A stretch of 64,000 nucleotides of DNA. Origin: an uncultured Pelagibacteraceae bacterium. GTDB lineage: Bacteria; Pseudomonadota; Alphaproteobacteria; Pelagibacterales; Pelagibacteraceae. How positions within the stretch are numbered: the first letter of the stretch is position 1; each line of letters opens with the position of its first letter. The DNA lies in assembly GCA_902534465.1 (NCBI GenBank), contig CACAPU010000004.1:16403-80402 (forward strand), read 5' to 3'. The notes below the pieces were generated by a model that saw only the letters and a program-made list of their open reading frames with translations, was not told the DNA's origin and did not search any database. Positions 7,422 through 29,659 of this stretch are shown one piece after another. The position numbers and the translations under genes were made by a program.

Positions 7422-7486
7422 AGACGTGTCAACTTGTTACACCATATAGTTATTGTTTATTGACTTTAAAAGAATATATCAGCGCT

Positions 7487-7930
7487 ATGACTAAATATAA
7501 TAAATTAACAAGTTCATTTATAATATTAATCAGTATATTTTTTACGAATATAGCTTTAGGTGCGGATGTAACAGTGGAAATGCTTAATAGGCTTGATAAA
7601 GAGTCAAATGTTTTTGAGCCTAAAATAGTAAGAGTTAACCCTGGGGATACAGTTCTTTGGAAGGCAACAGATAAAGGACATAACGTTGAATTCATAAAAA
7701 AAGGTGTACCAGATGGAGTTGGTAAGTTTAAATCAAAGTTTAATAAGGATGTTGAATACAAGTTTGAGGTCCCAGGAATTTATGCTTACTGGTGTACACC
7801 ACACAAAAATATGGGAATGATTGGTTTTGTGGTTGTTGGAGACGACAAATCTAACCTAGATGCTATTAAGAAGTTAAGATTTTCATCAAAGTCTAAGAAA
7901 TTAGCACCAGGTTTAATAGACCAACTATAA
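7487..7930 (+). CDS. Pseudoazurin (type-1 copper protein)
   Basis: Signal peptide; GHNVEF and YWCTPHKNMGM copper ligands; likely ATG at 7487. Confidence 0.9.
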   Translation: MTKYNKLTSSFIILISIFFTNIALGADVTVEMLNRLDKESNVFEPKIVRVNPGDTVLWKATDKGHNVEFIKKGVPDGVGKFKSKFNKDVEYKFEVPGIYAYWCTPHKNMGMIGFVVVGDDKSNLDAIKKLRFSSKSKKLAPGLIDQL

Positions 7931-8587
7931 ATCAGCAAATATTTTTGAGTTAAGACGTTTAACTTTTATAAATGAATCCTTGTACTTCCCGGAGCGGTGA
8001 TAATCGCCCGGGAAGGCAACACATCTTAATTTAGCTTTTTTTGCGTATTTTAAACTAATCTCTGTATCTTCAATTGCTAAACAATCTTTATTTCTAAGTT
8101 TTAATTTTTTTAGGCAATGTAAGTAAATATTAGTTTTATTATTAAAGTTTTTTATAATTTTGTTGTGTCCGATGTAATCAAAATCACTTTTTTTTAAATA
8201 TTTATTTAAAGATATAAATACTGCATCAATATTATTTTTTGTAGTAGAGGTTGCAAAGCCAATTTTAATTTTATTTTTTTTACAATATTTGATTACATTA
8301 ATTACTCCAGCACGTGGTTTCAATTTATTCTTTTTTAAATAATTATTAAAAATTAAAGTTTTTAAATTTCTAATTTTTTTTGCATTAACTAAAGTTTTTT
8401 TTTTAAGACTAAATTTTTTTACCCTTTTTTCCCCACCAGATTTTTTTAACATTGACTGATATAATTTTTTACTCCAATGCCATTTTAATCCTGAAATTTT
8501 AAAAGCTGAATTAAAGCAATTTCTTTGAATATTTGATGTTTCTACTATTGTGCCAATAGAACCAAATAATATGGCTTTGATTGCCAT
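7925..8587 (-). CDS. HAD-IA/CbbY-like protein lacking the DxD motif
   Basis: AILFGSIGTIVETS at the motif I position, ATST, AIEDT; CbbY-like cap (GGEKRV). Confidence 0.75.
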   Translation of the reverse strand: MAIKAILFGSIGTIVETSNIQRNCFNSAFKISGLKWHWSKKLYQSMLKKSGGEKRVKKFSLKKKTLVNAKKIRNLKTLIFNNYLKKNKLKPRAGVINVIKYCKKNKIKIGFATSTTKNNIDAVFISLNKYLKKSDFDYIGHNKIIKNFNNKTNIYLHCLKKLKLRNKDCLAIEDTEISLKYAKKAKLRCVAFPGDYHRSGKYKDSFIKVKRLNSKIFADL

Positions 8588-9468
8588 TACCCTTTAACAG
8601 CACCAGTGGTTAAGCCACTTATTACTTGTCTTTGAAAAAACATGACTAACATAAACAATGGTGCAGTTGCAGACACAACTGCTGAAACAGCCCACATTAA
8701 ATTACCTTCATGCTGATTAGTACCAAGATAACTTTGTATTTTTGGAACCATTGTGTGGTTTTCTTGATTTAATAATAATGCAGTGACTGTAAAGTCGTTG
8801 TAAGCCAACATAAGACTAAACAAACCAGCTGTTATTACTCCAGGCCACATCACTGGCATGATTATATATCTAAATGCTTGAAAATATGAGCAACCATCAA
8901 TTAATGCACTTTCATCTAATTCTTTAGGAACAGTTTTAAAAAAAGAATAAAGTAACCATAAAGTAAATGGTTGATTTATTGCAACTAAAACCACAATTGT
9001 GGTTGGTAAAATCCCCCAAATTTGTAATTCAAAAAATGGAAAAAGATATCCAGATACTAGTGTTATGTGTGGCATTGCTCTAAAAATTAATGCTGCAATT
9101 AGAATCCAAAATGCATATCTTTCAGTAGATCTAGACAAAGCATATGCACCTAAAGTTCCTAAAAAAAGTGATATAGAGACAACAAAAACTGTTACTATAA
9201 TCGTATTTCTTGATGCTTTCCAAAATTCACCTTCAGTCCAAGCTTCAGAATAAGCTTTTGAAGTAAACTGACCACCTGTTTCTAATAAAGTATTAAATGC
9301 TGAGATTGCATACCACCAATCAGCTCTAGAAAAAAAATCTGCTCTTACTTTAAACGATCCCCAAAAAGTCCAAATGAATGGAAAGCATGCAATTAATAAC
9401 CAAATTATTATAAAAGTAGTGTTAAATGTTTTAAGTGCATTTGATCTTTTGTCTAAACCATATTCCAT
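8587..9468 (-). CDS. Carbohydrate (CUT1) ABC permease
   Basis: PKELDESALIDG EAA loop; about 6 TM segments. Confidence 0.9.
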   Translation of the reverse strand: MEYGLDKRSNALKTFNTTFIIIWLLIACFPFIWTFWGSFKVRADFFSRADWWYAISAFNTLLETGGQFTSKAYSEAWTEGEFWKASRNTIIVTVFVVSISLFLGTLGAYALSRSTERYAFWILIAALIFRAMPHITLVSGYLFPFFELQIWGILPTTIVVLVAINQPFTLWLLYSFFKTVPKELDESALIDGCSYFQAFRYIIMPVMWPGVITAGLFSLMLAYNDFTVTALLLNQENHTMVPKIQSYLGTNQHEGNLMWAVSAVVSATAPLFMLVMFFQRQVISGLTTGAVKG

Positions 9469-10496
9469 TATCTTGCCGTCCTAAATTCTTTCCAAGTCCT
9501 AATTAATACTGGTGCTAACAATATGGCTATACCAATAATAGTCATCATAGAAGTTGCTGCTGCAGAACCAAATAAGATTACTTCTTCGTTGACTAAATTA
9601 TCATAGATTAGCCATGATAAAGATTGAGCACTTCCTTCAGCGCTAAAACCAATTATTGGTTCAAAGACTCTAAAATTGTCCATTAATGATATTAAAGCTA
9701 CAAAAGTAACAACCGGATAAATATGTGGTAACACAATATGTCTAATTCTTTGGTATCTTGACGCACCATCAATAATTGCTGCCTCAACAGGTTCTTGAGG
9801 TACTGTTTGTAATGCAGCATAAAAAACTACAAAAGCAAAAGGAGAATGATGCCAAATTCCATAGATAATTATAGTTATCCATGTAAGCGTTCTAGATGAT
9901 TTTAATGATAGATATGGATCTTCCATCATTAATTGTAAATTTGCACCAATAATTCCCTCTGCATCAATCATCCAAAATAAAACAAGGGATCCTACTAATG
10001 GAGTAACTATCATTGGTAATATTGTACCAAATATTAATGGGCCTCTTATTTTTCTAGATATTGCATTTAAACTTAACGCAATAATGAAACCTAGCAATAA
10101 AACATTGGGAGTTACAAATAAACAATAAGTTAAAGTAAATAAAAGAGCTTTGTAAAAAGGTAAATTAGTAACCTGATTGATAAATTCTCCAAATGTGTCA
10201 GTTTCTTTCCAAAAATCTGAAATTTGCTCAATAGCTAAGTGATTTCTATCTATATAAGTACCAAATCCGTTAAATTTACCTAAAGGTTTTTCATCTCTTA
10301 ATATTGAAGTTGCTTCTTGATCAACAACTATTGAAACTGTACAGCCAAAAGGATCGCATTTCTTAACTTCTTTTACTACTTGATCATGTTGGGCATAAAA
10401 AGATTGTATACCAGTAGATATTATTGGCAAACCAATAAACAAAATCATTGCCAAACCAGTTGGCAAGAAAAACCAGAAAAAAGTTTTATTTGGCAT
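9468..10496 (-). CDS. Carbohydrate (CUT1) ABC permease
   Basis: EPVEAAIIDGASRYQR EAA loop. Confidence 0.9.
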   Translation of the reverse strand: MPNKTFFWFFLPTGLAMILFIGLPIISTGIQSFYAQHDQVVKEVKKCDPFGCTVSIVVDQEATSILRDEKPLGKFNGFGTYIDRNHLAIEQISDFWKETDTFGEFINQVTNLPFYKALLFTLTYCLFVTPNVLLLGFIIALSLNAISRKIRGPLIFGTILPMIVTPLVGSLVLFWMIDAEGIIGANLQLMMEDPYLSLKSSRTLTWITIIIYGIWHHSPFAFVVFYAALQTVPQEPVEAAIIDGASRYQRIRHIVLPHIYPVVTFVALISLMDNFRVFEPIIGFSAEGSAQSLSWLIYDNLVNEEVILFGSAAATSMMTIIGIAILLAPVLIRTWKEFRTAR

Positions 10497-10502
10497 TTAA
10501 AA

Positions 10503-10529
10503 TTAAGTGGGGATTAAATCCCCACTTAA
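10503..10529 (-). terminator. Stem-loop after the binding-protein gene
   Basis: TTAAGTGGGGAT-TAA-ATCCCCACTTAA perfect inverted repeat. Confidence 0.7.
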
Positions 10530-10539
10530 ATATTTATTT

Positions 10540-11766
10540 TTATAGAAAGCCTTGTTCTTTAGCTTTACTGATGTAAGCAGCTTCAACATCTTTCAATGCT
10601 TGTTCTGCAGACTCTTTACCTTGTAAGAACTCAACTATTTCGCTTCCTAATGCACCATGCATCAATCCCATTTGTGGTAACATTGGGTAAGGTTTTGCTC
10701 CCATTTTTACAGCTTCAATCACACCAATAGATTTTGGTCCTGGCACAAAACCTTCAACTAACCAAACAGCTTGGTCAGCAGCATCTGCAACCATTTTTTT
10801 ATTTGAAGCAGCATGAGCTAGAGCTATAAAAGTTGACTCTGCATCACTGTCAGATCTATTTTTTGCTAAAGTAAATCCATCCCACCATAATGTAGCTGCA
10901 GGAATATTTCCTCCACCAACAGTTGCTGGTCCAGTTAATTTAGTTGCTGCAGTAATTTTTGCATCACCCTCATCATCTAATAAAGTTCCAGATCTTGATG
11001 CCCATAATGTCATAAGAGCAACTTTTCCAGATTCCCATTCAACTTTGATTGCTTCACTATCGTGAGTAAGATAATCCGGGTTACTTAAACTTGCCAACTT
11101 TTTAAGCATGTTAAGTGTAGCCACACCTTTTGCATTATTAATATTTGGTTCAGCAGTTCCAGCTTTAAAGAATTCACCACCATGACCAATGAACATGTTT
11201 ACAAATTCTTCTGCTAAATTCCATCCAGCTTTATAAGCAGCTGCATACGGATGTTGCATTTTACCTGATGCTCTTATTTTTTCAGATGCAGCAACAACTT
11301 CTTCGTAAGTTTTAGGCACAGGTATACCTAATTCTTTTAAAACATCTTCTCTGTAATACAAATGTTGAGTATTTGCCATAAAAGCAACAGCCATTACTTT
11401 TCCATCAATTGTTATTAATTGGGAGTCTTGTATTCCTTTCCCATATTTTTTAACTAGATCATCCATAGGTCTAATTAAATCTTGATTCATTAAAGGAACA
11501 ATTGAACTATTAGCTGCAATTCTTGCTGAAAATTCAGAAGGGTTTGCAGTTAAAGCTGGAACAGCAATTTTGTTGTGTTCTGATGAGTGAGTAACTTTAA
11601 AATCTGCACTTCCTTTACATCCTTTAGCTGTTTCTACAAATGTTCTTAATGCTGGAAAATCATTTGCTAAAATATTTATTGAACCACTTGGTTTACTGCA
11701 ATGCCCATCAGCATATGCCGTTGTACCAAAAAGCACGAACAATAAGGTTAATAGTATTTTTCTCAT
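10540..11766 (-). CDS. Carbohydrate-type ABC substrate-binding protein
   Basis: Signal peptide (AYA), LYYREDVLKELG-PKTYEE motif of SBP family 1; upstream of two permeases. Confidence 0.88.
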   Translation of the reverse strand: MRKILLTLLFVLFGTTAYADGHCSKPSGSINILANDFPALRTFVETAKGCKGSADFKVTHSSEHNKIAVPALTANPSEFSARIAANSSIVPLMNQDLIRPMDDLVKKYGKGIQDSQLITIDGKVMAVAFMANTQHLYYREDVLKELGIPVPKTYEEVVAASEKIRASGKMQHPYAAAYKAGWNLAEEFVNMFIGHGGEFFKAGTAEPNINNAKGVATLNMLKKLASLSNPDYLTHDSEAIKVEWESGKVALMTLWASRSGTLLDDEGDAKITAATKLTGPATVGGGNIPAATLWWDGFTLAKNRSDSDAESTFIALAHAASNKKMVADAADQAVWLVEGFVPGPKSIGVIEAVKMGAKPYPMLPQMGLMHGALGSEIVEFLQGKESAEQALKDVEAAYISKAKEQGFL

Positions 11767-11843
11767 ATTTTCTCTCTTTTTTGGTTGTTTATAATTATTC
11801 TAATAAAACTATATCTTTAAGAATTATCTAATAAAAGATATTT

Positions 11844-12971
11844 TTAAATCACTTTTGACGCAAGTCCTGATCCAATCACAAGTGACTCAAGTTTTTTATA
11901 AACTATGTTCTCATCAACATTTCCAAATCCGGCAAATGTGCTAAATCCACAATCAGTGCCGGCCATTAATTGGCTAGGATCTATTACTTTAGAAAAGGCT
12001 AAAATTCTATGTTTTACAACATCTGGATGTTCAATAAAATTGCTCGTGGACTCAATTACTCCTGGAATAATAATTTTATCTTTTGGTAGTTTTATATTTT
12101 CAAATACTTCCCATTCATGAGCATGCCTAGGGTTAGCAGATTCTATCAAATACATATTTATGTTAGCTTTAAAAGCTATCTCAATAATTTTATTTAACTC
12201 AATATCGTGGATGTGAGGTCCCTCATAATTTCCCCAACAAATATGCATTCTTACTTTACTTGGATCAATATTTTCTAATGACTTATTTAAAACCTCGACA
12301 TGTTTGTTTGCCCTTTCTAAAAAATTTTCCTCTGAAAAGTCCTTATAAATCATATGCCTTGATAGAGCTAGGTCAGGGCAATCGATTTGAAGAGAAAGAC
12401 CACTATTAATAATTTTTTCATATTCAAATTTCATAATATCTGAGAGCTTTTCTAAATATTCATCGTCATTTTTGTAAAATTTATTAGGTAGAAAATTACA
12501 AATAACTCCTGGTGATGGAGAATTCATAAACCCGTCACTATGAGAATTTTTATTTAATGCATCTTTAAAATTAACAATATCTTTACTAATCGAAACATTA
12601 TCTTTTAATTTTAATTCACTTGTGCAACATGGTCTTTTATATGTTGGGGTTCCACCAGATTGTATAAGTTTTTTTTTAAAAGATGGAAAATCATCTAAAT
12701 CTTTTGGAGCTTTTCTTTCACTTTCTCCTGAAAAACCTTCAACTCTATCTTTAATATATGTTGCATAACTAATTTTTGACATTTCTCCGTCACTTACTAT
12801 ATCAATTCCTGTATCAATCTGTTTTTTTACAACTTCTAAAACATTATTTTTTACAACTTCGTCAAATTTTTTTATGCTTATTTCTTCTTTATTATCTTTT
12901 GATGCTAAAAGACTTGAGAGTTCATTTGATCTGGGTAGGCTTCCGACATGTGTGGTTTTTATTTTAACCAT
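11844..12971 (-). CDS. Cobalamin-independent methionine synthase II family (single-domain MetE-like Zn enzyme)
   Basis: TTHVGSLPR, SDGE, HICWGN, ESANPRH, GTDCGF Zn-ligand motifs; no N-terminal folate barrel. Confidence 0.85.
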   Translation of the reverse strand: MVKIKTTHVGSLPRSNELSSLLASKDNKEEISIKKFDEVVKNNVLEVVKKQIDTGIDIVSDGEMSKISYATYIKDRVEGFSGESERKAPKDLDDFPSFKKKLIQSGGTPTYKRPCCTSELKLKDNVSISKDIVNFKDALNKNSHSDGFMNSPSPGVICNFLPNKFYKNDDEYLEKLSDIMKFEYEKIINSGLSLQIDCPDLALSRHMIYKDFSEENFLERANKHVEVLNKSLENIDPSKVRMHICWGNYEGPHIHDIELNKIIEIAFKANINMYLIESANPRHAHEWEVFENIKLPKDKIIIPGVIESTSNFIEHPDVVKHRILAFSKVIDPSQLMAGTDCGFSTFAGFGNVDENIVYKKLESLVIGSGLASKVI

Positions 12972-13932
12972 AATTTAATAAAATTTGTTTCCATATAGCA
13001 ACTTCATCAAATAATACCCACTCCCTTATAATAGAGTTGGAGTAAAATTCTGCATGATTAATTCCCATTATAAATATTTTTTTATTTGAAGCTTTATCAT
13101 AATCCATACTATCGTTACTGTGAGTACCTTCTAAAAACCATCTAACTGATACTCTTGGGTTTTGACCTACTTCCTCTAAAAAACCTACATGTTCTATAGT
13201 AAATTTTATGTTTGAAAATATTACTTTTAGAGAATTCCATTTTTCTTTAATAACCTCTCTTCCATGGCCAATTTTATTTCCAGGCCAAAAAATATTAGCT
13301 GCTCTATCATATCCTTCAAATTTATAGTTATAATTAAAAATATTTTTAAGTATCTCTGTATATTTTTCAGCTTTTGATCCTTTTTTATATATCTCAGCTT
13401 CATAATTTGAACTTTTATCAGTTTCAAAATCGAATAACCTAGATGCAGTTGAAATTCCCCCTTCACTTTCAATTATTTTCTTTGCAAATTCTTTTGGAGA
13501 GTAACCAATCTGTCTTACCATCGCTCCTTGATCTCTAACAATCCACTCGTCATAAACTTGATTTTCTTTACATGCACAATCAGCAATTACTCTATAATAA
13601 ATATCTTTCCCACTGGGCTTTCCATAAAAACCATCACCTAGGTGTGTTCCTTTACTTAATATTCTATGGGAAGAGTGATATCCAATTTCGTCATTACCAT
13701 TCCAAATAACATCCTCACCTAACAATTGTCTATTAGGAAATTCTTTTAAAGTTGCATATGTTGCGTCTATAACTGGTTTATTGCCATAAGTAACTCCAAA
13801 TGGTGATCTTACTGTTATATCTTTTGTATAAAATTTACTGATAGACTCAACATCTTTACCCTCCCAAATTTGCTCAGTTATTTTTAATATATAGTCAGGA
13901 AAGTCTTTGTATTTCTTATCAAAACCTTTCAT
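12964..13932 (-). CDS. Tandem SnoaL/NTF2-like (ester cyclase family) protein
   Basis: Two repeats, each with a GTH motif and ending in EWxxxD (GTHLG...DEWIVRD; GTHSN...REWVLFD); ATG at 13932 overlaps the cupin stop. Confidence 0.8.
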   Translation of the reverse strand: MKGFDKKYKDFPDYILKITEQIWEGKDVESISKFYTKDITVRSPFGVTYGNKPVIDATYATLKEFPNRQLLGEDVIWNGNDEIGYHSSHRILSKGTHLGDGFYGKPSGKDIYYRVIADCACKENQVYDEWIVRDQGAMVRQIGYSPKEFAKKIIESEGGISTASRLFDFETDKSSNYEAEIYKKGSKAEKYTEILKNIFNYNYKFEGYDRAANIFWPGNKIGHGREVIKEKWNSLKVIFSNIKFTIEHVGFLEEVGQNPRVSVRWFLEGTHSNDSMDYDKASNKKIFIMGINHAEFYSNSIIREWVLFDEVAIWKQILLNYG

Positions 13933-14876
13933 TATATTTGTGATACACAATTAAGAAGTGACTCATTTTTTTCTTCAATTTTAATGCTAATGTTGGATCC
14001 AACTGGAACTGAAAATGTATCTTTATAATCTAATTCAATGGAAGAATTGTCCGTCTCAATGTTCCATTTCCCTTTTTGTGAAAAAAAAATTGTAGGTTTG
14101 TCAAATTTTAGATTTTCAACTCTTCCTATTGTAGATTTAAAAGTGCATAAGCTAAATCCAGTATCTTGTTTTATAATTGGAGTTATTGTTTCGTTTTGAA
14201 AATTGTTACCTAAAATATGTGAAATTTTAACATTTTTTCCAATATTGCTTTCATTTTCAAGTCTCTTGTTAGTCTCGCATATATTTTTTTGTAATTGTTC
14301 TAGTTTATAATTATCAAATTTTGTAATCTCATCCTTTGATATAGGGTCAAGTAATTTTCTGCCATTTGGAATATCTTGACTGTTTAAATCAATCAAAGAA
14401 TTATCATCTAATAGCGCCATACCAGTTTGTTTAGCTTTTTTTAGAACCTCAGGTATCCATGTTACAATTCCAGGATCATCTCCTCCAAGAACAACAAAAA
14501 TAAAACCCTCCTCATCTCCTACATTTTCAAATGCTCTAAACATATTTGTTGGCATAGATATAATATCGCCTGGATTTAATATTGTCTCATCTTCGCCTTT
14601 AGAACCCCAATAAAACCTCCATTTACCTGAATAAATTATGAATACTTCAGCAGTCAAATGGCTATGAAGTCCAGAACCATTTAAGGGCTTTGCAGAAACA
14701 GCACCCAAGTTAAATCCATGTGGTTCTGATATTTTTATTGATTGATTTGCATCTTCAGCAACACCTGGTCCTAAAATAGAATAATTTTTTCTCTCTTTAT
14801 GACCTTTCAATTTACCTTCAACAAAGGGTAAAGTACTAGGAGTTAAGTCCTCAAATTTAGCAAGTCTAATATTCAT
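13932..14876 (-). CDS. Cupin-domain protein
   Basis: GSGLHSHLTAEVFIIYSG motif 1, PGDIISMP motif 2; probable degenerate second cupin domain. Confidence 0.8.
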   Translation of the reverse strand: MNIRLAKFEDLTPSTLPFVEGKLKGHKERKNYSILGPGVAEDANQSIKISEPHGFNLGAVSAKPLNGSGLHSHLTAEVFIIYSGKWRFYWGSKGEDETILNPGDIISMPTNMFRAFENVGDEEGFIFVVLGGDDPGIVTWIPEVLKKAKQTGMALLDDNSLIDLNSQDIPNGRKLLDPISKDEITKFDNYKLEQLQKNICETNKRLENESNIGKNVKISHILGNNFQNETITPIIKQDTGFSLCTFKSTIGRVENLKFDKPTIFFSQKGKWNIETDNSSIELDYKDTFSVPVGSNISIKIEEKNESLLNCVSQI

Positions 14877-14928
14877 ATTTTTTTAATTATAATATTGTGA
14901 TACACGAATATTTCCAATAAATAAATAT

Positions 14929-16014
14929 ATGCAAATAGAGCAATTTGATACAGGACTTAAAACCAAAACAAACGTTAAAGATATTGTTCTTTCACCAGAG
15001 CAAAATTTTCGAAATAAAAATTTAATTAGAAGCTATTTAAATCAAATTGTAAATTTTGGATTAAAAGAAATAGATAAAAGTATTGATAAGGCATTTATAA
15101 ATGATGTAAAGGTCAATTGTTTTCATCCTTTAAATGAGTTTGTTGGAATAAAAAATTTAAAAGAGAAGCTCTGGACACCATTATTAGAAGCCTTCCCAGA
15201 TTTAGAAAGAAGAGAAAACATTGTAGTAGGGGGAGCTTTTAGGGATAAAATTTTAGTAGGGTCATATTCAACGTTATCTGGATACTTTAAAAAGTCATGG
15301 TTAGGGGTTAAACCAAATTTTAAAATGATTAATCTCAGATGTTGTGAAATACATGAACTTAAAGAAGACAAAATAGTAGAAACCCATATATTAATTGATG
15401 TTATAGATTTCTTAAGACAATGTGGTATTTTTCCAATCAATCCATCGAGAGGATCTGAAGGAGCCTGGTTACCTCCAATAAATACTGATAGTGTAAATTT
15501 TTTTGAAAAAGATATTGAAATTTCAAATTCAAGTTTGAGACAAGCTCTTTCAATGAATAGAAGTCTTAATTTTAAACCTGAAACAGAGAACCTATCTGAT
15601 GAAGAATTAAAAAAAAGATTAATAGATCATCCTCAAAGAGAGTATTGGCATGACAAAATGATATGGTATGGACCATGTGGAATAGGCACCTCAAGATCTT
15701 TAGAGGGTTTTATTGATATGCATCAGTTGCCATTTAGAAAATCATTTACTGAAAGAGATTATTTCAAACTTGGTCATTATTGTGAAATAGGGGATGGTAA
15801 ATTTTCTTTATGTGCTGGTTGGCACAGTTTAGAGGCTTATTATGGTTCAAATGATTGGTTAGGTTTTACTGCAAATAATCAAAAACTAACAATGAGAGTT
15901 ATGGATTTTTATCACCATGATGAAGGAAAAATCCGTGAAAATTGGGTACCAATTGATATACTTCATATTTTAAAACAAATAGGCATAGATATTTTAGAAA
16001 AAGTTAAAAGTTGA
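14929..16014 (+). CDS. Tandem SnoaL/NTF2-like (ester cyclase family) protein
   Basis: LLEAFPDLERR, WYGPCGIG, MRVMDFY...KIRENWVPID. Confidence 0.8.
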   Translation: MQIEQFDTGLKTKTNVKDIVLSPEQNFRNKNLIRSYLNQIVNFGLKEIDKSIDKAFINDVKVNCFHPLNEFVGIKNLKEKLWTPLLEAFPDLERRENIVVGGAFRDKILVGSYSTLSGYFKKSWLGVKPNFKMINLRCCEIHELKEDKIVETHILIDVIDFLRQCGIFPINPSRGSEGAWLPPINTDSVNFFEKDIEISNSSLRQALSMNRSLNFKPETENLSDEELKKRLIDHPQREYWHDKMIWYGPCGIGTSRSLEGFIDMHQLPFRKSFTERDYFKLGHYCEIGDGKFSLCAGWHSLEAYYGSNDWLGFTANNQKLTMRVMDFYHHDEGKIRENWVPIDILHILKQIGIDILEKVKS

Positions 16015-16015
16015 A

Positions 16016-17065
16016 ATGGCAAATATAAAATTCACAGGCGTTCATAAATCTTTTGGATCAAACAAGATTATAACTGATTTTAACCTGATGGGAAAAGATG
16101 ACGAATTTCTTGTATTAGTTGGTCCATCTGGTTGTGGAAAGTCAACTTTATTAAGAATGATAGCAGGTTTAGAAAAAATTGATGATGGCGAAATATTTAT
16201 AAATGATCAAAAAATTAATGATCTTCATCCCTCAAAAAGACAAACTGCAATGGTATTTCAATCTTATGCTCTTTATCCACACATGAATGTTTATGAGAAC
16301 ATGTCATTTGGACTGAAGATTGAAAAGAAATCTAAGGAAGAAATTGAAACAAAAGTTATGCAAGCAGCTAAAATTTTAAAAATAGAGGAATTACTTGAAA
16401 GAAAACCCAAGCAATTATCTGGAGGTCAGAGGCAAAGAGTTGCCATTGGACGTGCAATTACCCGAAATCCTAAAATATTTTTATTTGATGAGCCATTATC
16501 TAATTTGGATGCAGCTTTAAGAGCTGAGATGAGAGTAGAAATTTCAAAGCTTCATAACCAAATCAAAACCAATATGATTTATGTTACCCATGATCAAGTA
16601 GAAGCAATGACTTTAGCTGATAGAATTGTAATATTAAATCTTGGAAATATAGAGCAAGTCGGAACACCTGATGAAATTTACAATAATCCATCAAATATTT
16701 TTGTTGCTCAATTTATTGGAACACCAAAAATGAATATTTTACCATTAAATAATGAAAATATTATTTCAGATAATAAAATTAACTTTTTAGGGAACGAAAT
16801 TACCTTTGAAAAAATTAAGTTTGATAAAAGTAAATATTTTATTGGAATAAGACCCGAACATTTTAATGTATCAAATGAATCTAAATTTAAGTTCAAACCT
16901 AAAATTGAATTAGTAGAAAATTTAGGAAATGAAAAGATAGTTTATATGAGTAATGATAATTTAGAGCTTAGTGCAAAAATTTCTAGTCAAATTGATTTTC
17001 AAAATGAGCTTAGATTTGATACTAAAGATATTTTTATATTTGATGAAAACGGAAGTAGAATTTAA
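16016..17065 (+). CDS. Carbohydrate ABC ATPase (MalK/UgpC family)
   Basis: GPSGCGKST, VFQSYALYPHM, LSGGQRQRVA, YVTHDQVEAMT, C-terminal TOBE domain. Confidence 0.93.
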   Translation: MANIKFTGVHKSFGSNKIITDFNLMGKDDEFLVLVGPSGCGKSTLLRMIAGLEKIDDGEIFINDQKINDLHPSKRQTAMVFQSYALYPHMNVYENMSFGLKIEKKSKEEIETKVMQAAKILKIEELLERKPKQLSGGQRQRVAIGRAITRNPKIFLFDEPLSNLDAALRAEMRVEISKLHNQIKTNMIYVTHDQVEAMTLADRIVILNLGNIEQVGTPDEIYNNPSNIFVAQFIGTPKMNILPLNNENIISDNKINFLGNEITFEKIKFDKSKYFIGIRPEHFNVSNESKFKFKPKIELVENLGNEKIVYMSNDNLELSAKISSQIDFQNELRFDTKDIFIFDENGSRI

Positions 17066-17100
17066 ACTTCCTTGATAAGTATTTACATAATTAACTCAAA

Positions 17101-18000
17101 ATGAATTGGATTATAGTCACAATCATCGCTGCTTTTTTTCAAAATTTAAGATCATCATTTCAGAAAAAAATTAACAAAGATGTTTCTACAATTGCTTCAA
17201 CATATGTAAGATTTTCATTTGCTCTACCTTTAGCCTTACTGTTATTTTTTGTTTATTTTAGAGAATTCGCAATTATTAAAGATATACTTGTTCAACCAGA
17301 TTTTTTAATCAATGTTACATTAGCATCAATTTTTCAAGTTATTTTTACATTTGTTTTGCTCTACCTTTTTAAATTTTCAAATTTTGTAGTAGGTACGTCA
17401 CTTAGTAAGACAGAAGTTGTACAAGTTGCTTTATTTGAATATTTAATACTCAATGAAAAACTTAATATATTAGGAATTAGTGGAATTATAATTTCAACTT
17501 TAGGAGTAATTATTTTATCAATAAAAAACTTAAAATTTTTTTTCCAAAATATTTTTTCTAAAACTACATTAATTGGATTAATTTCAGGTTTATTCTTAGC
17601 TTTGAGCATTGTTTATTTTAGATCTGCAGCGCTATCTTTGAAAAATTTTGAGTCAAATTTTGAAAAAGTAATATCAACACTACTATTTGGCCTTTTAATA
17701 CCTACAATAATCTTAACTATTTATCTTTTAATATTTGAAAAAAAAGAATTTAGAAAACTTTATAATGATAAATATGATTGCATGCTAATTGGCTTAGGTG
17801 GTTTTTTTGCATCTTTATCATGGTTTTATGCATTCACATTAATTCAAGCATCATTTGTCAGAGCTGTTGGACAAATTGAATTATTATTTAGTTATTTTTC
17901 TTCAAGATATTTCTTCAAGGAAAAAGTAAAAACGTCTGAAATAATAGGTATTATAATTTTTGTATTAGGAGTAATACTTTTATTATTTTCAAGAGTTTAA
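17101..18000 (+). CDS. DMT/EamA-family transporter
   Basis: About 10 TM segments in two repeats; VRAVGQIE motif. Confidence 0.8.
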   Translation: MNWIIVTIIAAFFQNLRSSFQKKINKDVSTIASTYVRFSFALPLALLLFFVYFREFAIIKDILVQPDFLINVTLASIFQVIFTFVLLYLFKFSNFVVGTSLSKTEVVQVALFEYLILNEKLNILGISGIIISTLGVIILSIKNLKFFFQNIFSKTTLIGLISGLFLALSIVYFRSAALSLKNFESNFEKVISTLLFGLLIPTIILTIYLLIFEKKEFRKLYNDKYDCMLIGLGGFFASLSWFYAFTLIQASFVRAVGQIELLFSYFSSRYFFKEKVKTSEIIGIIIFVLGVILLLFSRV

Positions 18001-18005
18001 TAAAA

Positions 18006-19292
18006 CTAATTTTGAAATCCGTACTTTCTTAGTCTCACATCCCCGGTTCTCGCATGAGCTTCCATGCCCTCATATCTTGAAATTCTTGCGCATGCTGCAC
18101 CCACTTCTTTTGTAGACTCTTTAGTCATTCTTTGAAAACTTAATGTTTTAATAAATTTTCCAACAAACAAACCACCAGTATATTTTCCTGCTCCTTTAGT
18201 AGGCAAAATGTGGTTTGTACCAGAACATTTATCACCATAAGCAACTGTGGTCTCTTCTCCAATAAATAATGATCCATAATTTTTTAATCTGTCATGGAAC
18301 CATTGAAGATTTTTAGTTTGAATTTCTAAATGTTCAGGGGCATATTCATCACTTATTTTAGCCATTTCTTCATCCGTATCGCACAGAATAACTTCACCAT
18401 AGTCTCTCCAAGCAGCGCCCGAGTTTTCTCTTGGTAAATCTGGCAGATCTGCAATAAGCTCTGGCACTCTTTGCATGACATATTCAGCAAGTTTTTTACT
18501 AGTCGTAAATAACCAAGCTGGAGAATTGTATCCATGCTCTGCTTGTCCAACTAAATCAAAAGCAACTAATTCTGGATCAGCTGTATCGTCAGCTATCACA
18601 GCGATTTCTGTAGGACCTGCAAATAAATCAATCCCAACTTTTCCAAACAGAATTCTTTTTGACTCTGCAACAAATTGATTACCTGGGCCTACAAGCATAT
18701 CCGCAGGTGCGTTTCCAAAAAGACCATAAGTCATTGCGGCAATAGCTTGCACACCACCTAAATTCATTATTACATCTGCGCCACATAAATCTGCAGTGTA
18801 GACTATCGCAGGATGAACACCCACACCTGGTTTTGGAGAACTACAAACAATAATATTTTTTACACCAGCTACCTTTGCTGTTGTTACACTCATCACAGCT
18901 GATGCTATGTGTGCATATCTTCCAGCAGGAACATAACAACCTGCAGTATTAACTGGAATTAATTTTTGCCCAGCATATAAACCATCTGATAACTCTACTT
19001 CAAAATCCTGACCATAGTTTTTCAATTGTGCTTCAGCAAATTTTCTTACTCTTTCATGAGAAAATTGAATATCATCTTTAGTCTTAGGATCTAAATTTTT
19101 TTTAATTTCTTCAATTTTTTCTCTCGTAACAATTACTTCACCTTCGTATTTATCAAATTTTTTTGATAGTTCGATACATCCTTCTTCTTTAGTTTTTTCA
19201 ATATCTTTAAGAATATTTTCAACAATCTCTCTGGTCTTTGTATCGTCAGTTGATGAAGTTTTTGGTGATTTTTTTAAGTAAGTTATTGCCAT
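18006..19292 (-). CDS. hpsN: Sulfopropanediol (DHPS) 3-dehydrogenase, HisD family
   Basis: HisD fold (GPGNQFVAE, QAEH, APEHL) with HpsN-type segments GRYAHIASA, QAEHGYNSP, YGDKCSGTNHILPT; sulfonate gene context including suyAB. Confidence 0.82.
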   Translation of the reverse strand: MAITYLKKSPKTSSTDDTKTREIVENILKDIEKTKEEGCIELSKKFDKYEGEVIVTREKIEEIKKNLDPKTKDDIQFSHERVRKFAEAQLKNYGQDFEVELSDGLYAGQKLIPVNTAGCYVPAGRYAHIASAVMSVTTAKVAGVKNIIVCSSPKPGVGVHPAIVYTADLCGADVIMNLGGVQAIAAMTYGLFGNAPADMLVGPGNQFVAESKRILFGKVGIDLFAGPTEIAVIADDTADPELVAFDLVGQAEHGYNSPAWLFTTSKKLAEYVMQRVPELIADLPDLPRENSGAAWRDYGEVILCDTDEEMAKISDEYAPEHLEIQTKNLQWFHDRLKNYGSLFIGEETTVAYGDKCSGTNHILPTKGAGKYTGGLFVGKFIKTLSFQRMTKESTKEVGAACARISRYEGMEAHARTGDVRLRKYGFQN

Positions 19293-21168: not shown

Positions 21169-22101
21169 TCAAAATATTTTACAAACTAAATCTGACAAAG
21201 AAGAGATATTTTGTTCTTGAATTTTAATAGTATCGCTTAATGCTTGATCTTTCATATTTATAGTGAATTGTTTTTTTTTATTAATACTAATGAATTTATT
21301 TTTTAACAAATAATTCAATTTTCTTACAACTGTAGGTCTTGGAATATGAGTTATATCAGAAATTGACATAGTATTTACCCCACCTTCTTCAACATTTACC
21401 ATATCTTTCTCCCATTCTGAAAAATTTAAACCAACACCCTCATAAGATTTATTTACTATTGAGTGACATGTTATAACCATACCTACTGAATAAATTTCAA
21501 GATCTCCTAATTGCTTTTTCCATCTTAAGGTTAAAGTAAAAATAAATATATAAAAATAGTACCAACAATATGAAAAGTTTTTCTTTAAATGCTCTGATAC
21601 TTCGTCGACATTTAAAGATTTGTCTATTAAATTTTCTTTTTTTAATATTTCAGAAATTTTTGATAATAATGCGCTCAAATTTTTAAGAGTATTTTTAGGT
21701 TGTACCAGTCTATAAGCCGACCTATCTATATAAATTTTTTTTCCAATTTTTTGAAGAACGTTTAATTTTTCAAGGTCGAGAATTTTTCTTCTAGTACTTT
21801 CCTTTGGAATATTTAAACTTTTTGATATTTCAATTATATTAATTCGATCTAATTCCAAAGATTTATCAAACATAAAAAAATTATCATAGCTCTCTATTTT
21901 TTTAATTTGTATGTAGTGCTCAAAATCTTTGTTTATTAGATAAAGAATTATCCTATACTTATCTATATCGTTAAAAACTTCATATGAAGAATTCATCCAT
22001 TCAGATATTAATCTGTAGTATGTTGGGGCAAGTTTTTCAAAATTTCCTGTGATTAATTTTTGAATATTTTTTTTTATGAGATTGTTTAGGATTTTAGTCA
22101 T
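21169..22101 (-). CDS. Hypothetical protein with two winged-helix/HTH repeats
   Basis: INIIEISKSLNIPKESTRRKILDL and VNTMSISDITHIPRPTVVRKLNYL are homologous HTH-like segments. Confidence 0.7.
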   Translation of the reverse strand: MTKILNNLIKKNIQKLITGNFEKLAPTYYRLISEWMNSSYEVFNDIDKYRIILYLINKDFEHYIQIKKIESYDNFFMFDKSLELDRINIIEISKSLNIPKESTRRKILDLEKLNVLQKIGKKIYIDRSAYRLVQPKNTLKNLSALLSKISEILKKENLIDKSLNVDEVSEHLKKNFSYCWYYFYIFIFTLTLRWKKQLGDLEIYSVGMVITCHSIVNKSYEGVGLNFSEWEKDMVNVEEGGVNTMSISDITHIPRPTVVRKLNYLLKNKFISINKKKQFTINMKDQALSDTIKIQEQNISSLSDLVCKIF

Positions 22102-26730: not shown

Positions 26731-27771
26731 ATGTTTATTAAAAAAATTTGTAAGACATTACTCACAGGTTTTGCAATTGCATTTTTTGCCCAAGCTGCTT
26801 ATGCAGAGATAACTCTAAAGCTTGGTACTACTGGTAGATTGGGTATGCCAATTGGTGACGCAATAGACCAGGCGTTAATACCAGCAATGGAGAAAGCATC
26901 TGGAGGTAAAATGAAAATTGAACCTCATTATCAAAGAAGCTTGTGTGCAGAGCAAAAATGTGGTGAACAAGCCAACCAAGGACTTATTGCTTTGTGGACT
27001 AGTTCTACTGCAAACTATGGTAATTTTGGACCAGAGTTAGCAATTTTCGATTTACCATTTATATTCAAATCACTTGAAGATGCGAAAAGAATCTCAGATG
27101 AATGGTTAGCTGAAAGACAGTGTAAACTTGCTCTTGAAAATGCTGGTCATATTTGCCTTTCTGTATATTCAAGTGGTGGATTTAGACAGCTTGGAAATGC
27201 AACTAAACCTGTTCATGAACCAGATGATATGAAAGGACTTAAATGGAGAACTACTAAAAGTCCAGTTGAGTTCATGCTAGTTAAAAATTGGGGCGCAACA
27301 CCAACACCTTATGACTGGAGTCAATTATATCAAGGTCTTCAATCAGGTGTAGTAGAAGGGCAGTATGTTGCAAGTCCATGGCAGCACGTTGCAAAACTTC
27401 ATGAAGTTGCAAAATATTTCACTGAGATCGGAGGAATGTGGTCTGGAAATATTTTAGCAATGGATGCTAAACAGTACAATGCATTGTCTGACCAACAAAG
27501 AAAATGGTTACACGAAGCAGCAGATGCGTATGGAGAAAAAGTAAACGAGTTGGATAACGCTTGGATTAAAAATGGTGAAGATGCAATTAAAGCATCTGCT
27601 AAAGAGTGGTATGTGCCAACAGAAGCGGAAATGACTAAGTGGAGAGCAGGTGCAATCGGTGCTTGGTTAGACGCTAAGGGTACTTTTGAACCAGAAGTAG
27701 CTAAAAGAGTACTTTTAGAACAAGGTATGGATGGATTTGTAGCTCAGTTAGAAGCAGCTGGAGCTCTATAA
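26731..27771 (+). CDS. dctP: TRAP transporter substrate-binding protein
   Basis: Signal peptide; FDLPFIF, GGFRQL, DMKGLKWR, LYQGLQSGVVEG; SD AGGAG. Confidence 0.9.
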   Translation: MFIKKICKTLLTGFAIAFFAQAAYAEITLKLGTTGRLGMPIGDAIDQALIPAMEKASGGKMKIEPHYQRSLCAEQKCGEQANQGLIALWTSSTANYGNFGPELAIFDLPFIFKSLEDAKRISDEWLAERQCKLALENAGHICLSVYSSGGFRQLGNATKPVHEPDDMKGLKWRTTKSPVEFMLVKNWGATPTPYDWSQLYQGLQSGVVEGQYVASPWQHVAKLHEVAKYFTEIGGMWSGNILAMDAKQYNALSDQQRKWLHEAADAYGEKVNELDNAWIKNGEDAIKASAKEWYVPTEAEMTKWRAGAIGAWLDAKGTFEPEVAKRVLLEQGMDGFVAQLEAAGAL

Positions 27772-27792
27772 ATCTTCAAAGAAAACAATGTG

Positions 27793-27829
27793 AAGACCAT
27801 TTAGTTCTGTTTTAGAATTAGATGGTCTT
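27793..27829 (+). terminator. Stem-loop after dctP
   Basis: AAGACCATTTAGTTCT...AGAATTAGATGGTCTT. Confidence 0.65.
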
Positions 27830-27861
27830 TACCTAAAAAAAATCATAACTTATAAATATCT

Positions 27862-29145
27862 ATGGAAAGTATTATTTTACTCGTAGTACTCCTTTTTCTA
27901 ATTTTATTAGGAGCTCCTATTGGTTTTATTTTAATACTGATACCATTTGTTTATATTCTTCTCACAGATGCAGTTCCTCTTGTTTTAATTCCTAGTCAAA
28001 TGTTTACCGCTATAGATTCAGTTCCATTGACCGCAATTGCATTCTTTATGTTGACGGGTGAATTAATGACAAGTGCAACTATTACTGACCGTTTAGTTGC
28101 TTTAAGTAGAGCGTTAATTGGGCGTATACGAGGGGGGTTGGCTCAAGTAAATGTACTTGTGAGTATGTTTTTTGCTGGCATGAATGGTTCTGTCGTAGCA
28201 GATACAGCTACAGTAGGAGCATTAGTTTTACCTGCAATGAAGAGAGCAGGTTATCCTGCTGCATTTTCAGCTGCGGTTACAGGTGTAAGTTCCACTATAG
28301 GAGGGATTATTCCACCTAGCATCATGATGATTGTGCTCGCAAACGCAACCGAGATTTCAATTGCGTCTTTATTTGCAGCCGGGATTGTTCCAGGTATTTT
28401 GATTGGTGTTGTGATAATGGTAATCAATCATTACTTTGCAGTTAAATATAACTTTGAGCGTAGCGATGAACCATTCTCAGTTCGTAGAGCTGGTAAAGAA
28501 TTATATCGCTCTTCATTTGCTCTTTTAATACCTTTAGTATTGGTAGGTTCAGTCATGGGAGGTGTGGCATCAGTTGTTGAGGCTGGAGCTATCACTGCTT
28601 TGGTTGCGTTATTTACAGGTGTATTTGTTTATCGAACTATCAAATGGAAAGATTGTACCAGTGCTTTTCGTCGGGCATTCCGTAATTCAGCAATGGTTTT
28701 TATTATAATAGCTGCTTCAGGACCTTTTAGTTGGTTACTCACTTCACTTGGTGCAATTGGTGATCTCGAAACTTGGCTTTTAGGGTTAGCAGACTCTCCT
28801 ATATTATTTATTTTGGCTTTGATATTATTCATCTTTCTTCTTGGAACGGTAATGGACTCAGCGGTTAACATTATAATTGTTGGTCCAGTATTAGTGAATG
28901 TTATGTCTCAAGCCGGCTTTCCAGAGGTGCAAGCAGCTATGGTTGTAATAGTTGGGTTCTTAATAGGATCAGTAACGCCACCAGTTGGTGTTGCCTACTT
29001 TACATCTGCAACAATAGCACAAGTCCGTCTTGAAAAGGTTGCTATCGCTTTAATTCCTTATCTGATTGGATTGTTTTTACTTTTATTTTTTATTCTTATT
29101 GTACCAGAATTAACTATGTTTCTTCCAAACCTATTGAGTAATTAA
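27862..29145 (+). CDS. dctM: TRAP large permease
   Basis: FAGMNGSVVADT, GGIIPPSI, VTPPVG. Confidence 0.92.
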   Translation: MESIILLVVLLFLILLGAPIGFILILIPFVYILLTDAVPLVLIPSQMFTAIDSVPLTAIAFFMLTGELMTSATITDRLVALSRALIGRIRGGLAQVNVLVSMFFAGMNGSVVADTATVGALVLPAMKRAGYPAAFSAAVTGVSSTIGGIIPPSIMMIVLANATEISIASLFAAGIVPGILIGVVIMVINHYFAVKYNFERSDEPFSVRRAGKELYRSSFALLIPLVLVGSVMGGVASVVEAGAITALVALFTGVFVYRTIKWKDCTSAFRRAFRNSAMVFIIIAASGPFSWLLTSLGAIGDLETWLLGLADSPILFILALILFIFLLGTVMDSAVNIIIVGPVLVNVMSQAGFPEVQAAMVVIVGFLIGSVTPPVGVAYFTSATIAQVRLEKVAIALIPYLIGLFLLLFFILIVPELTMFLPNLLSN

Positions 29146-29149
29146 TGAA

Positions 29150-29659
29150 ATGTTAAAATTTTTGAACAGCATTGATCGTTTTATCCATCGGATGTTGGAA
29201 GCTATGTGCTCACTCTTGTTGGCTGCTATGGTTGCTTTCACTCTTTATAATGTAACAATGCGATATGTTTTTAACAATCCTCCAGTTTGGGGTGACTTGC
29301 TAACAGTGTTAAGTAATATTTGGTTGATGTTTATAGCACTTTCTCTAACAGCAAGGGATAATGAACACGTAGCTTTAAATTTAATTTATGAAAAATTGCC
29401 AGACAGATTTGCTTTATATATACGGCAGTTCTGGAAAATTATGATTATGATAATTGGCGTGGTCTTAATTATTTATGGAATTGAACTTGTAGAGGGTATG
29501 CGAGGAAAGTACTGGGAAATGTGGTATTTTGAAATTAGTATGCAAGGTATTGAGTTCAAACCAAATTATATGCCCAAAAAATATGCAGTTGCAATCTTAC
29601 CTTTGGCTGGATTTTTGACGACCATTGGTGCTGCAATTGGTTTTTTCAAAAAGGTTTAA
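29150..29659 (+). CDS. dctQ: TRAP small permease
   Basis: 4 TM segments; VTMRYVFNNPPVW and HVAL motifs. Confidence 0.88.
   Translation: MLKFLNSIDRFIHRMLEAMCSLLLAAMVAFTLYNVTMRYVFNNPPVWGDLLTVLSNIWLMFIALSLTARDNEHVALNLIYEKLPDRFALYIRQFWKIMIMIIGVVLIIYGIELVEGMRGKYWEMWYFEISMQGIEFKPNYMPKKYAVAILPLAGFLTTIGAAIGFFKKV

Follow-up and report, generated by a model that had tools for sequence, protein, structure and literature searches.

We describe here a gene cassette in the region 7925 to 19292 of a 64,000-nucleotide stretch of DNA (the window) from a Pelagibacter (SAR11) genome (G000, 76.6% complete). The cassette probably imports and dismantles mycosporine-like amino acids (MAAs; shinorine, porphyra-334 and mycosporine-glycine). 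It combines a CUT1 ABC importer with two tandem SnoaL proteins (SnoA and SnoB), a bicupin, a MetE-core enzyme and a HAD protein. Within SAR11 these genes are inherited together, and the cassette occurs independently of the neighbouring hpsN gene. In other bacteria it is accompanied by exchangeable partner genes, which point to the breakdown of a mycosporine or gadusol and fit it atom for atom. Each pathway step is predicted from gene context, with more confidence in the substrate class than in the order of the steps or in which hydrolysis falls to SnoA and which to SnoB.

Gene organization of the locus

All the open reading frames listed by the initial annotation were recovered at their positions and with the Pfam families it had named. 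The region contains the following features (basis of assignment in brackets).

7925..8587, minus strand: CbbY-like HAD protein with both catalytic aspartates missing, a predicted pseudo-phosphatase (Pfam and alignment)
8587..9468, minus strand: CUT1 ABC permease, MalG type (Pfam/family profiles)
9468..10496, minus strand: CUT1 ABC permease, MalF type (Pfam/family profiles)
10503..10529, minus strand: hairpin of 12 pairs following the SBP gene, which probably stabilises the mRNA or acts as a partial terminator (consensus scan only)
10540..11766, minus strand: CUT1 solute-binding protein, SBP (Pfam, structure-database search, conservation)
11844..12971, minus strand: single-barrel MetE-core zinc enzyme with predicted methyl transfer to homocysteine (Pfam, conserved residues)
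12964..13932, minus strand: SnoA, a tandem SnoaL/NTF2 protein of clade A, predicted C-N hydrolase (Pfam, homologues, tree)
13932..14876, minus strand: bicupin with one metal site, predicted ring-cleaving oxygenase (Pfam, conservation, AlphaFold model)
14877..14928, no strand: divergent intergenic region of 52 bp (sequence)
14929..16014, plus strand: SnoB, a tandem SnoaL/NTF2 protein of clade B, predicted imine hydrolase (Pfam, tree, AlphaFold model)
16016..17065, plus strand: CUT1 ATPase, UgpC/MalK type (family profiles)
17101..18000, plus strand: EamA exporter, a variable passenger and not a core member (locus counts)
18006..19292, minus strand: HpsN-clade dehydrogenase (GRYAH) that flanks the insertion site (similarity, motif, tree)

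The 52-bp gap between the two divergent arms was confirmed, as was the position of the ABC ATPase on the arm opposite to the SBP and permeases. Four of the six junctions in the left arm overlap, which bears out the initial description of most junctions as overlapping: cupin/SnoA shares TAATG, SnoA/MetE-core overlaps by 8 nt, and the junction of the two permeases and that of the MalG-type permease with the HAD gene overlap by 1 nt each. The remaining junctions are gaps of 77 nt (MetE-core/SBP) and 43 nt (SBP/MalF-type permease), and the hairpin lies in the latter. SnoA probably starts at the ATG at 13932, which overlaps the cupin stop and gives a protein of 322 aa, as long as most of the top homologues, rather than at the TTG at 13950. 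As had been stated, hpsN directly adjoins the right arm in convergent orientation, with 5 nt between it and EamA. A consensus scan for promoter-like sites across the region showed no excess (66 against 71.8 by chance). RNA-run contigs from four studies match parts of the region, among them the SBP gene; because these runs were available as contigs only, they show presence and do not allow the genes to be ranked.

Distribution of the cassette within SAR11

Eighty-seven SAR11 loci were compared, which are non-independent, some genomes being counted twice. The MetE-core gene, the SBP gene and both permease genes accompanied SnoA and the cupin in all 76 loci with room for them, and the HAD gene was present in 71 of these 76. 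This joint occurrence agrees with the initial proposal that the genes form a single, undescribed system for taking up and degrading what is likely an algal metabolite. The proposed operon membership held for the left arm and only partly for the right one: on the right side hpsN was present in 76 of 78 loci, the ATPase gene in 60 (it is missing beside SnoB in 18) and EamA in 32.

The wider survey covered 151 Pelagibacter genomes, namely 150 drawn at a completeness of at least 88% plus the window genome, with one genome flagged as unpublished (G173) included in the tallies. SnoA was found in 46 of them, MetE-core in 46 and both in 45. The hpsN gene was far more common (139/151) and occurs in 95 genomes that lack the cassette. 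Twenty cassette-free genomes were selected from among the hpsN matches, and in all of them hpsN adjoins pta. Since the hpsN-pta pair is kept when the cassette is absent, the pair is the fixed flank and the cassette is the variable insert. The cassette is a mobile nutrient cassette carried by about one third of Pelagibacter species; HTCC8051 (L048) is among its carriers. It probably adjoins hpsN only because it was inserted there, and hpsN is likely not part of the cassette in the window genome.

Other arrangements were seen at this insertion site. Two cassette-free genomes of close relatives (G166 and G162; L109 and L110) keep the ATPase and EamA genes between pseudoazurin and hpsN, leaving an orphan CUT1 ATPase. 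In two of the 20 cassette-free genomes the ATPase is used for another CUT1 importer with an MGH1-like hydrolase. A second CUT1 importer with an MGH1-like glycoside hydrolase, apparently sharing the ATPase, occupies the same hpsN-adjacent site in L047, L054-L058, L112, L113 and L129.

Distribution of the cassette outside SAR11

Matches to SnoA were obtained in 26 of 400 other Pseudomonadota genomes (one of them weak), in 17 of 29 within one family, and on 55 plasmids. In 51 non-SAR11 loci the recurring members were SnoA-type (43) and SnoB-type (40) proteins, the cupin (40), a LacI regulator (43), a short-chain dehydrogenase/reductase, SDR (37), a HisD paralogue (36), an ABC SBP (35), MetE-core (24), an alpha/beta hydrolase (22), RraA (13) and HpcH (8). 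The CbbY-like HAD gene was found in none of the 51 and occurs with the cassette only in SAR11. The importer is exchanged for SSF, MFS, TRAP or TonB receptors. All 36 cassette-borne HisD paralogues lack His126, and those included in the tree form a separate clade (support 100/99).

Partner genes for serine, glycine and the methyl group

The SnoB clade was followed into metagenomes with a query alignment of anaerobe and Vibrio SnoB-clade proteins, and the best 80 of 338 loci were retained. An L-serine dehydratase gene (sdaA) was present in 14 of these 80 and also beside the copy of Vibrio pelagius. Among the 52 loci of at least 9 kb the linkage spans three of 23 lineages; in the Vibrio-type lineage the serine dehydratase stays with the module despite differing flanks. 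The minimal Vibrio module comprises two transporters (a sodium symporter and one of the MFS type) together with sdaA, LacI, a porin-like gene and a single gene of the SnoB clade. The SnoB-clade protein of these Vibrio serine-dehydratase loci is 99.7% identical to one that bears the name V. harveyi. The available part of PMC3083659 cites work in which V. harveyi takes the hydroxy-amino acid off both shinorine and porphyra-334, with mycosporine-glycine as the product; the same source has bacteria forming 4-deoxygadusol.

A corrinoid protein and/or a UroD-type methyltransferase was found in five of the 80 loci, all without MetE-core. Locus L245 carries the full trio of corrinoid, pterin-binding and UroD genes, and locus L244 carries UroD, HpcH and sdaA together with a gene of a glycine-transporter family. 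O-demethylases are among the UroD-family enzymes, as described in the portion of PMC10418091 at hand. Homologues in strict anaerobes suggest that the SnoaL step would need no oxygen.

Two further arrangements concern serine and methionine genes. In the gut Firmicutes-type loci L208, L214, L216 and L217 the two-SnoaL module is flanked by sdaAB pairs, on both sides in two loci. On the V. pelagius plasmid the block of sarcosine oxidase and sdaA genes that neighbours the SnoaL cluster is directly followed by a methionine synthase gene and its DUF1852 (MesX) partner (L258:11011-13041).

Partner genes predicted to act on the ring

RraA and HpcH are unrelated pyruvate aldolases that never occur in the same locus and fill one slot. 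In the RraA of relatives, R128-D129 matches the catalytic R123-D124 of the aldolase for CHA (4-carboxy-4-hydroxy-2-oxoadipate). E107...R128-D129 is conserved in 12 rows, in keeping with what we take to be the pattern of 4-hydroxy-4-methyl-2-oxoglutarate/CHA aldolases, an acidic residue 21 places upstream of the catalytic Arg-Asp; CHA aldolase activity is predicted only. With the ring structure and formulas that we assume for 4-deoxygadusol, demethylation, O2 cleavage and oxidation of the CH2OH group would by formula balance give exactly CHA. If CH2OH stays unoxidised, the C4 piece from gadusol is by the same balance 3-oxo-tetronate, which is presumably handled by OtnK and OtnC. In Ensifer, a cluster that has no HisD over 25 kb carries, after the aldolase, a 3-oxo-tetronate kinase OtnK (456 bits against a cut-off of 350) and an OtnC-like gene (241 bits against one of 250). 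A second OtnK above the curated cut-off, 38% identical to that of Ensifer, belongs to a gammaproteobacterial locus whose contig is 5 kb long. Each proposed step balances by formula, and the masses agree with PMC9321204. RraA-type aldolase splits CHA to pyruvate and oxaloacetate, according to the part of PMC5065237 available.

Five land variants of the cluster (Priestia, Roseibium, Deinococcus, Pantoea and Sinorhizobium medicae) also encode an amidase or C-N hydrolase, and a second HisD type is present in four of them. These land additions would fit the amino-alcohol and amide of fungal mycosporine-glutaminol.

Proposed pathway

In the proposed pathway the CUT1 ABC system would import the MAA, and SnoB would hydrolyse the C1 imine so that serine or threonine is freed and mycosporine-glycine is left. 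SnoA would then hydrolyse the C3 enaminone, freeing glycine and leaving 4-deoxygadusol. The bicupin would use O2 to cut the ring between C2 and C3. MetE-core would pass the O-methyl group to homocysteine to form methionine, either while the ring is still intact, with the enol ether as donor, or once it is open, with the methyl ester as donor. The substrates have absorption bands at 334, 310 and about 270-295 nm, and the band would shift or vanish with each predicted step. In the full-length clusters elsewhere, a HisD-type enzyme would oxidise CH2OH to COOH to give CHA, which RraA or HpcH would split into pyruvate and oxaloacetate. Without HisD, gadusol would yield pyruvate and 3-oxo-tetronate, the latter handled by OtnK/OtnC. 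SAR11 would have kept the first half, with serine, glycine and the methionine methyl as its yield, and SAR11 HpsN may moonlight as the missing dehydrogenase.

SAR11 is described as a glycine auxotroph without MetE, MetH and MtgBCDE in the accessible text of PMC12478193 (2025), where the function of marine core-MetE homologues is called questionable. A fuller picture, in which the SAR11 form of MAA/gadusol breakdown comprises tandem-NTF2 enaminone hydrolases that are new as a family and free serine and glycine, a ring-opening bicupin, a MetE-core enzyme making methionine from the methoxy group and, in one lineage, an HpsN retooled (His126 to Asn) for the ring hydroxymethyl, could in our view just as well be right as wrong.

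Properties of the individual proteins

The two SnoaL proteins are distinct in phylogeny. A FastTree of 85 tandem SnoaL proteins resolved an A clade and a B clade, and the window holds one of each. Only SAR11-like proteins were among the best 120 SnoA homologues. The AlphaFold model of SnoB (pLDDT 89) has two NTF2 domains; its fold matches are generic (5-22% identity, with no close solved relative), and the top Foldseek match is of the polyether epoxide hydrolase type (TM 0.32, root-mean-square deviation (rmsd) 17.7).

The cupin model (pLDDT 92) has a bicupin fold with an invariant metal site (H71, H73 and E77) and an invariant R114 where many cupins have His. Its top fold match is quercetin dioxygenase (Z 21.4, rmsd 2.6, 225 aligned), tied with several non-oxygenases.

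In MetE-core the residues that the available part of PMC7857596 gives for zinc and homocysteine are retained. The Zn ligands are H243, C245, E277 and C341 and the homocysteine-binding positions S11, E63 and D197, all with a conservation of 90% or more over 15 rows; the equivalences of D197 and E277 were assigned by motif rather than by alignment to E. coli MetE. The protein falls below all NCBIfam family cut-offs (best 101 against 406 bits), and the solved-structure search gave no close relative. No corrinoid or MesX partner gene lies within the cassette, to which the MesX search was confined.

The SBP has its best solved relative at E 2e-10 in the structure-database search, which is not a close one; its conserved residues are N86, Q134, H135, W182, W255, W294, W295 and D296. 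The HAD protein aligns with CbbY at E 9e-24 and has G-S-I where CbbY has D-V-D, so that the DxD nucleophile motif is absent. Because both catalytic aspartates are missing, the label 'pseudo-HAD' given to it initially holds.

Evidence against MAA breakdown and alternative substrates

Several observations weigh against MAAs as the substrate. SnoA, SnoB, the cupin and the SBP have no characterised or solved close relative, and the fold matches of SnoB and the cupin are generic. SAR11 is without the later genes: RraA was found in 0 of 6 genomes searched, and no HisD paralogue, SDR, hydrolase or LacI is linked to the cassette in SAR11. HpcH genes do occur in five of five SAR11 genomes, elsewhere than at the cassette. 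MetE-core occurs in less than half of the non-SAR11 loci counted above. Likewise, sdaA is near the cassette in no SAR11 or roseobacter locus, and none was found in G000, at its 76.6% completeness. Twenty of the 23 lineages are without sdaA, and the sdaA linkage is given as raw counts. SAR11 SnoB, though of the same clade, is just ~29% identical to the Vibrio serine-dehydratase-linked protein. The V. harveyi report is second-hand in PMC3083659, whose available account names no gene or strain. Homologues also occur in human-gut bacteria, where the MAA supply is not obvious. Finally, the V. pelagius copy adjoins a whole sarcosine oxidase-purU-sdaA block, which would also fit N-methyl compounds.

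The last two points lead to the foremost alternative, another methylated amino-acid conjugate (N-methyl, betaine-type or a different aminocyclitol) whose breakdown also ends in glycine or serine, a methyl group and a pyruvate-yielding aldol step. Sarcosine oxidase genes flank two roseobacter loci besides the V. pelagius copy, an opuAC betaine-type ABC system is next door in the window, and corrinoid methyltransferases and serine dehydratase serve betaine breakdown too, as stated in the part of PMC9321204 available. However, a simple betaine requires neither sets of SnoaL paralogues nor a ring-cleaving cupin, a tertiary-alcohol aldolase or OtnK. Those methyltransferases in the loci that are anaerobic are UroD-type, and the V. 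harveyi match is specific to MAAs. We consider such a conjugate unlikely.

The initial annotation proposed that the import of a possibly sulfonated precursor of 2,3-dihydroxypropane-1-sulfonate (DHPS) feeds HpsN and SuyAB. The near-constant hpsN neighbour within SAR11, the wealth of sulfonate genes in the window and the His126 kept by the window HpsN speak for it, and mycosporine-taurine, which exists, would give a small real sulfonate link. In contrast, 50 of the 51 non-SAR11 loci have no HpsN-clade or other sulfonate gene in the stretch fetched. Of the 25 complete non-SAR11 carriers, 13 have an HpsN-class gene elsewhere in the genome (54-61% identity) and 12 have none, and a suyB search in five carriers gave best matches of 30-34%. 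The intact hpsN-pta pair of cassette-free genomes, the uniform lack of His126 in the cassette HisD paralogues and the 17 cassette-bearing genomes described below, which have a variant HpsN-like gene only, count against it as well. The initial annotation had asked for synteny with hpsN across taxa and held that independence from hpsN and suyAB would tell against the idea; independence is what was found. The adjacency to hpsN in SAR11, with suyAB and xsc ~40 kb away, therefore stands as an observation, while the link to DHPS is unsupported, and a DHPS precursor is highly improbable.

The reading as an importer for ordinary sugars or glycosides, accompanied by accessory enzymes, has, if anything, even less to recommend it. 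The transporter is of the CUT1 family and relatives carry a LacI regulator, but no sugar kinase or glycoside hydrolase recurs in the mapped loci, the importer is exchangeable for the other types named above, and the SBP is distant from solved sugar binders. Epoxide chemistry (a MetE-like epoxyalkane:CoM transferase with an NTF2 epoxide hydrolase, given an EHN gene 5 kb away) was dropped because the EHN gene is also in cassette-free genomes; arsenosugars, cysteinolate and sulfoquinovose were dropped as there is no arsenic, sulfonate or glycosidase partner.

The hpsN gene and other sulfonate genes

The window gene at 18006-19292 is a true HpsN-clade enzyme with predicted R-DHPS oxidation. It matches CpHpsN at E 7.5e-161, carries the GRYAH motif with His126 and has the E318-H319 and D352-K353 pairs. 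In a tree of 50 rows (drawn from 82 matches after most sequences with an identity of 96% or more to the window protein had been removed) it fell inside the HpsN clade with 100/100 support. The G-R-Y-A/S-H motif is diagnostic for HpsN according to the portion of PMC11382572 available. In 17 Pelagibacter genomes, all of them cassette carriers, the sole HpsN-like gene is a variant, 71-74% identical to that of the window (loci L118-L131, L004, L005, L044, L045 and L084). It has GRYNN for GRYAH (His126 to Asn) in 14 of 14 sequences read, and GPDSP for GYNSP. Because the GRYNN variants form one clade, they count as one event. The substitution hints that HpsN was recruited to a non-sulfonate diol in this lineage.

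The sulfonate genes in the window are comC-like, tauABC, tpa, pta, xsc and suyAB. The initial statement that TRAP, HpsO and HpsP genes are absent holds within 7925-19292; the window does contain a TRAP system at 26731-29659, with 22% identity to an HpsK. On contig C1 of the same genome (L257:4549-14452) another TRAP system has as neighbours a Zn dehydrogenase that is HpsP-like (40%), one NCS1-like and one EamA-like gene, and an SDR that is 33% like HpsO; this locus is a candidate for the real DHPS uptake locus of G000. Neither TRAP system was identified as HpsKLM, and solved-structure searches did not match either TRAP SBP to SAR11_0864/HpsK. On a Paracoccus alcaliphilus plasmid (L096:10908-18775) an HpsN-clade gene sits in a cysteinolate-like block with a taurine-type ABC, a racemase, an aminotransferase and a D-cysteine desulfhydrase-like gene, ~7 kb from a full SnoaL cluster.

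Other genes of the window

Pseudoazurin (above cut-off) is encoded at 7460-7930, where its stop overlaps the HAD stop; no nitrite reductase was found among the window open reading frames. At 21169-22101 lies the gene of a fast-evolving 310-aa protein (41-98% identity) with weak helix-turn-helix matches, which is common between sbf and comC in SAR11 and for which no family clearly scored. An amino-acid racemase at 1013-1720, close to the region rich in sulfonate genes, reaches 158 bits against a cut-off of 190 for the cysteate racemase CuyB.

Significance and comparison with known systems

As sunscreens, MAAs are widespread in algae, cyanobacteria and fungi; they enter the dissolved pool, and their conversion by bacteria is reported in the part of PMC3083659 available. 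If the reading as MAA breakdown is true, the importer and enzymes of this process would be named and marker genes supplied, the most abundant ocean bacteria would tap the MAA pool, and one molecule would ease both glycine and methyl needs for a third of Pelagibacter species. It would also give a role to marine core-MetE proteins. The HisD paralogues of SnoaL clusters should not be counted as DHPS genes. No description of this gene combination or of MAA-degrading genes was found in the literature, where most subscription papers and supplements lay outside the search.

The closest precedent is the bacterial conversion of shinorine and porphyra-334 to mycosporine-glycine and 4-deoxygadusol. These are the same two hydrolyses that are predicted for SnoB and SnoA, and V. 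harveyi carries a SnoB-clade protein; the account of the conversion, in the part of PMC3083659 available, names no genes or enzymes.

Compared with the core methionine synthases MesA-D/core-MetE (available parts of PMC7857596 and PMC12478193), the cassette enzyme has the same single catalytic barrel, zinc ligands and homocysteine residues. However, it scores far below the family cut-offs, belongs to a catabolic operon, has no corrinoid or MesX partner beside it, and its predicted methyl donor is a pathway intermediate. Lsd19, the MonBI/MonBII epoxide hydrolase-cyclases and polyketide cyclases also have two NTF2-like domains per chain, but with 12% identity, a whole-chain TM of about 0.3, different conserved residues, and no polyketide synthase context in the mapped loci.

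DHPS catabolism (hpsRKLMNOP, hpsRNOUP-suyAB; HpsN PDB 8v35 and 8wwe; PMC11382572 and PMC13335735, as far as available) shares with the present locus a true HpsN-clade neighbour, and the full SnoaL clusters elsewhere mimic its layout of LacI, HisD-type and SDR genes. Yet the cassette HisD forms its own clade, import is by ABC and not by TRAP, and SnoaL, cupin and MetE-core have no counterpart there. The lower pathway of protocatechuate 4,5-cleavage and gallate (PMC5065237, in part) resembles the predicted route in its end point via an RraA-family aldolase and in the O-demethylation and ring cleavage upstream. In contrast, the substrate is predicted to be a cyclohexenone and thus non-aromatic, the recurring members include neither LigAB/GalA nor a LigM/DesA-type protein, and SAR11 has no RraA in the genomes searched. 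Though the predicted ending resembles the one and the fold the other, the cassette belongs neither to the gallate/protocatechuate lower pathway nor to the HisD/HpsN systems.

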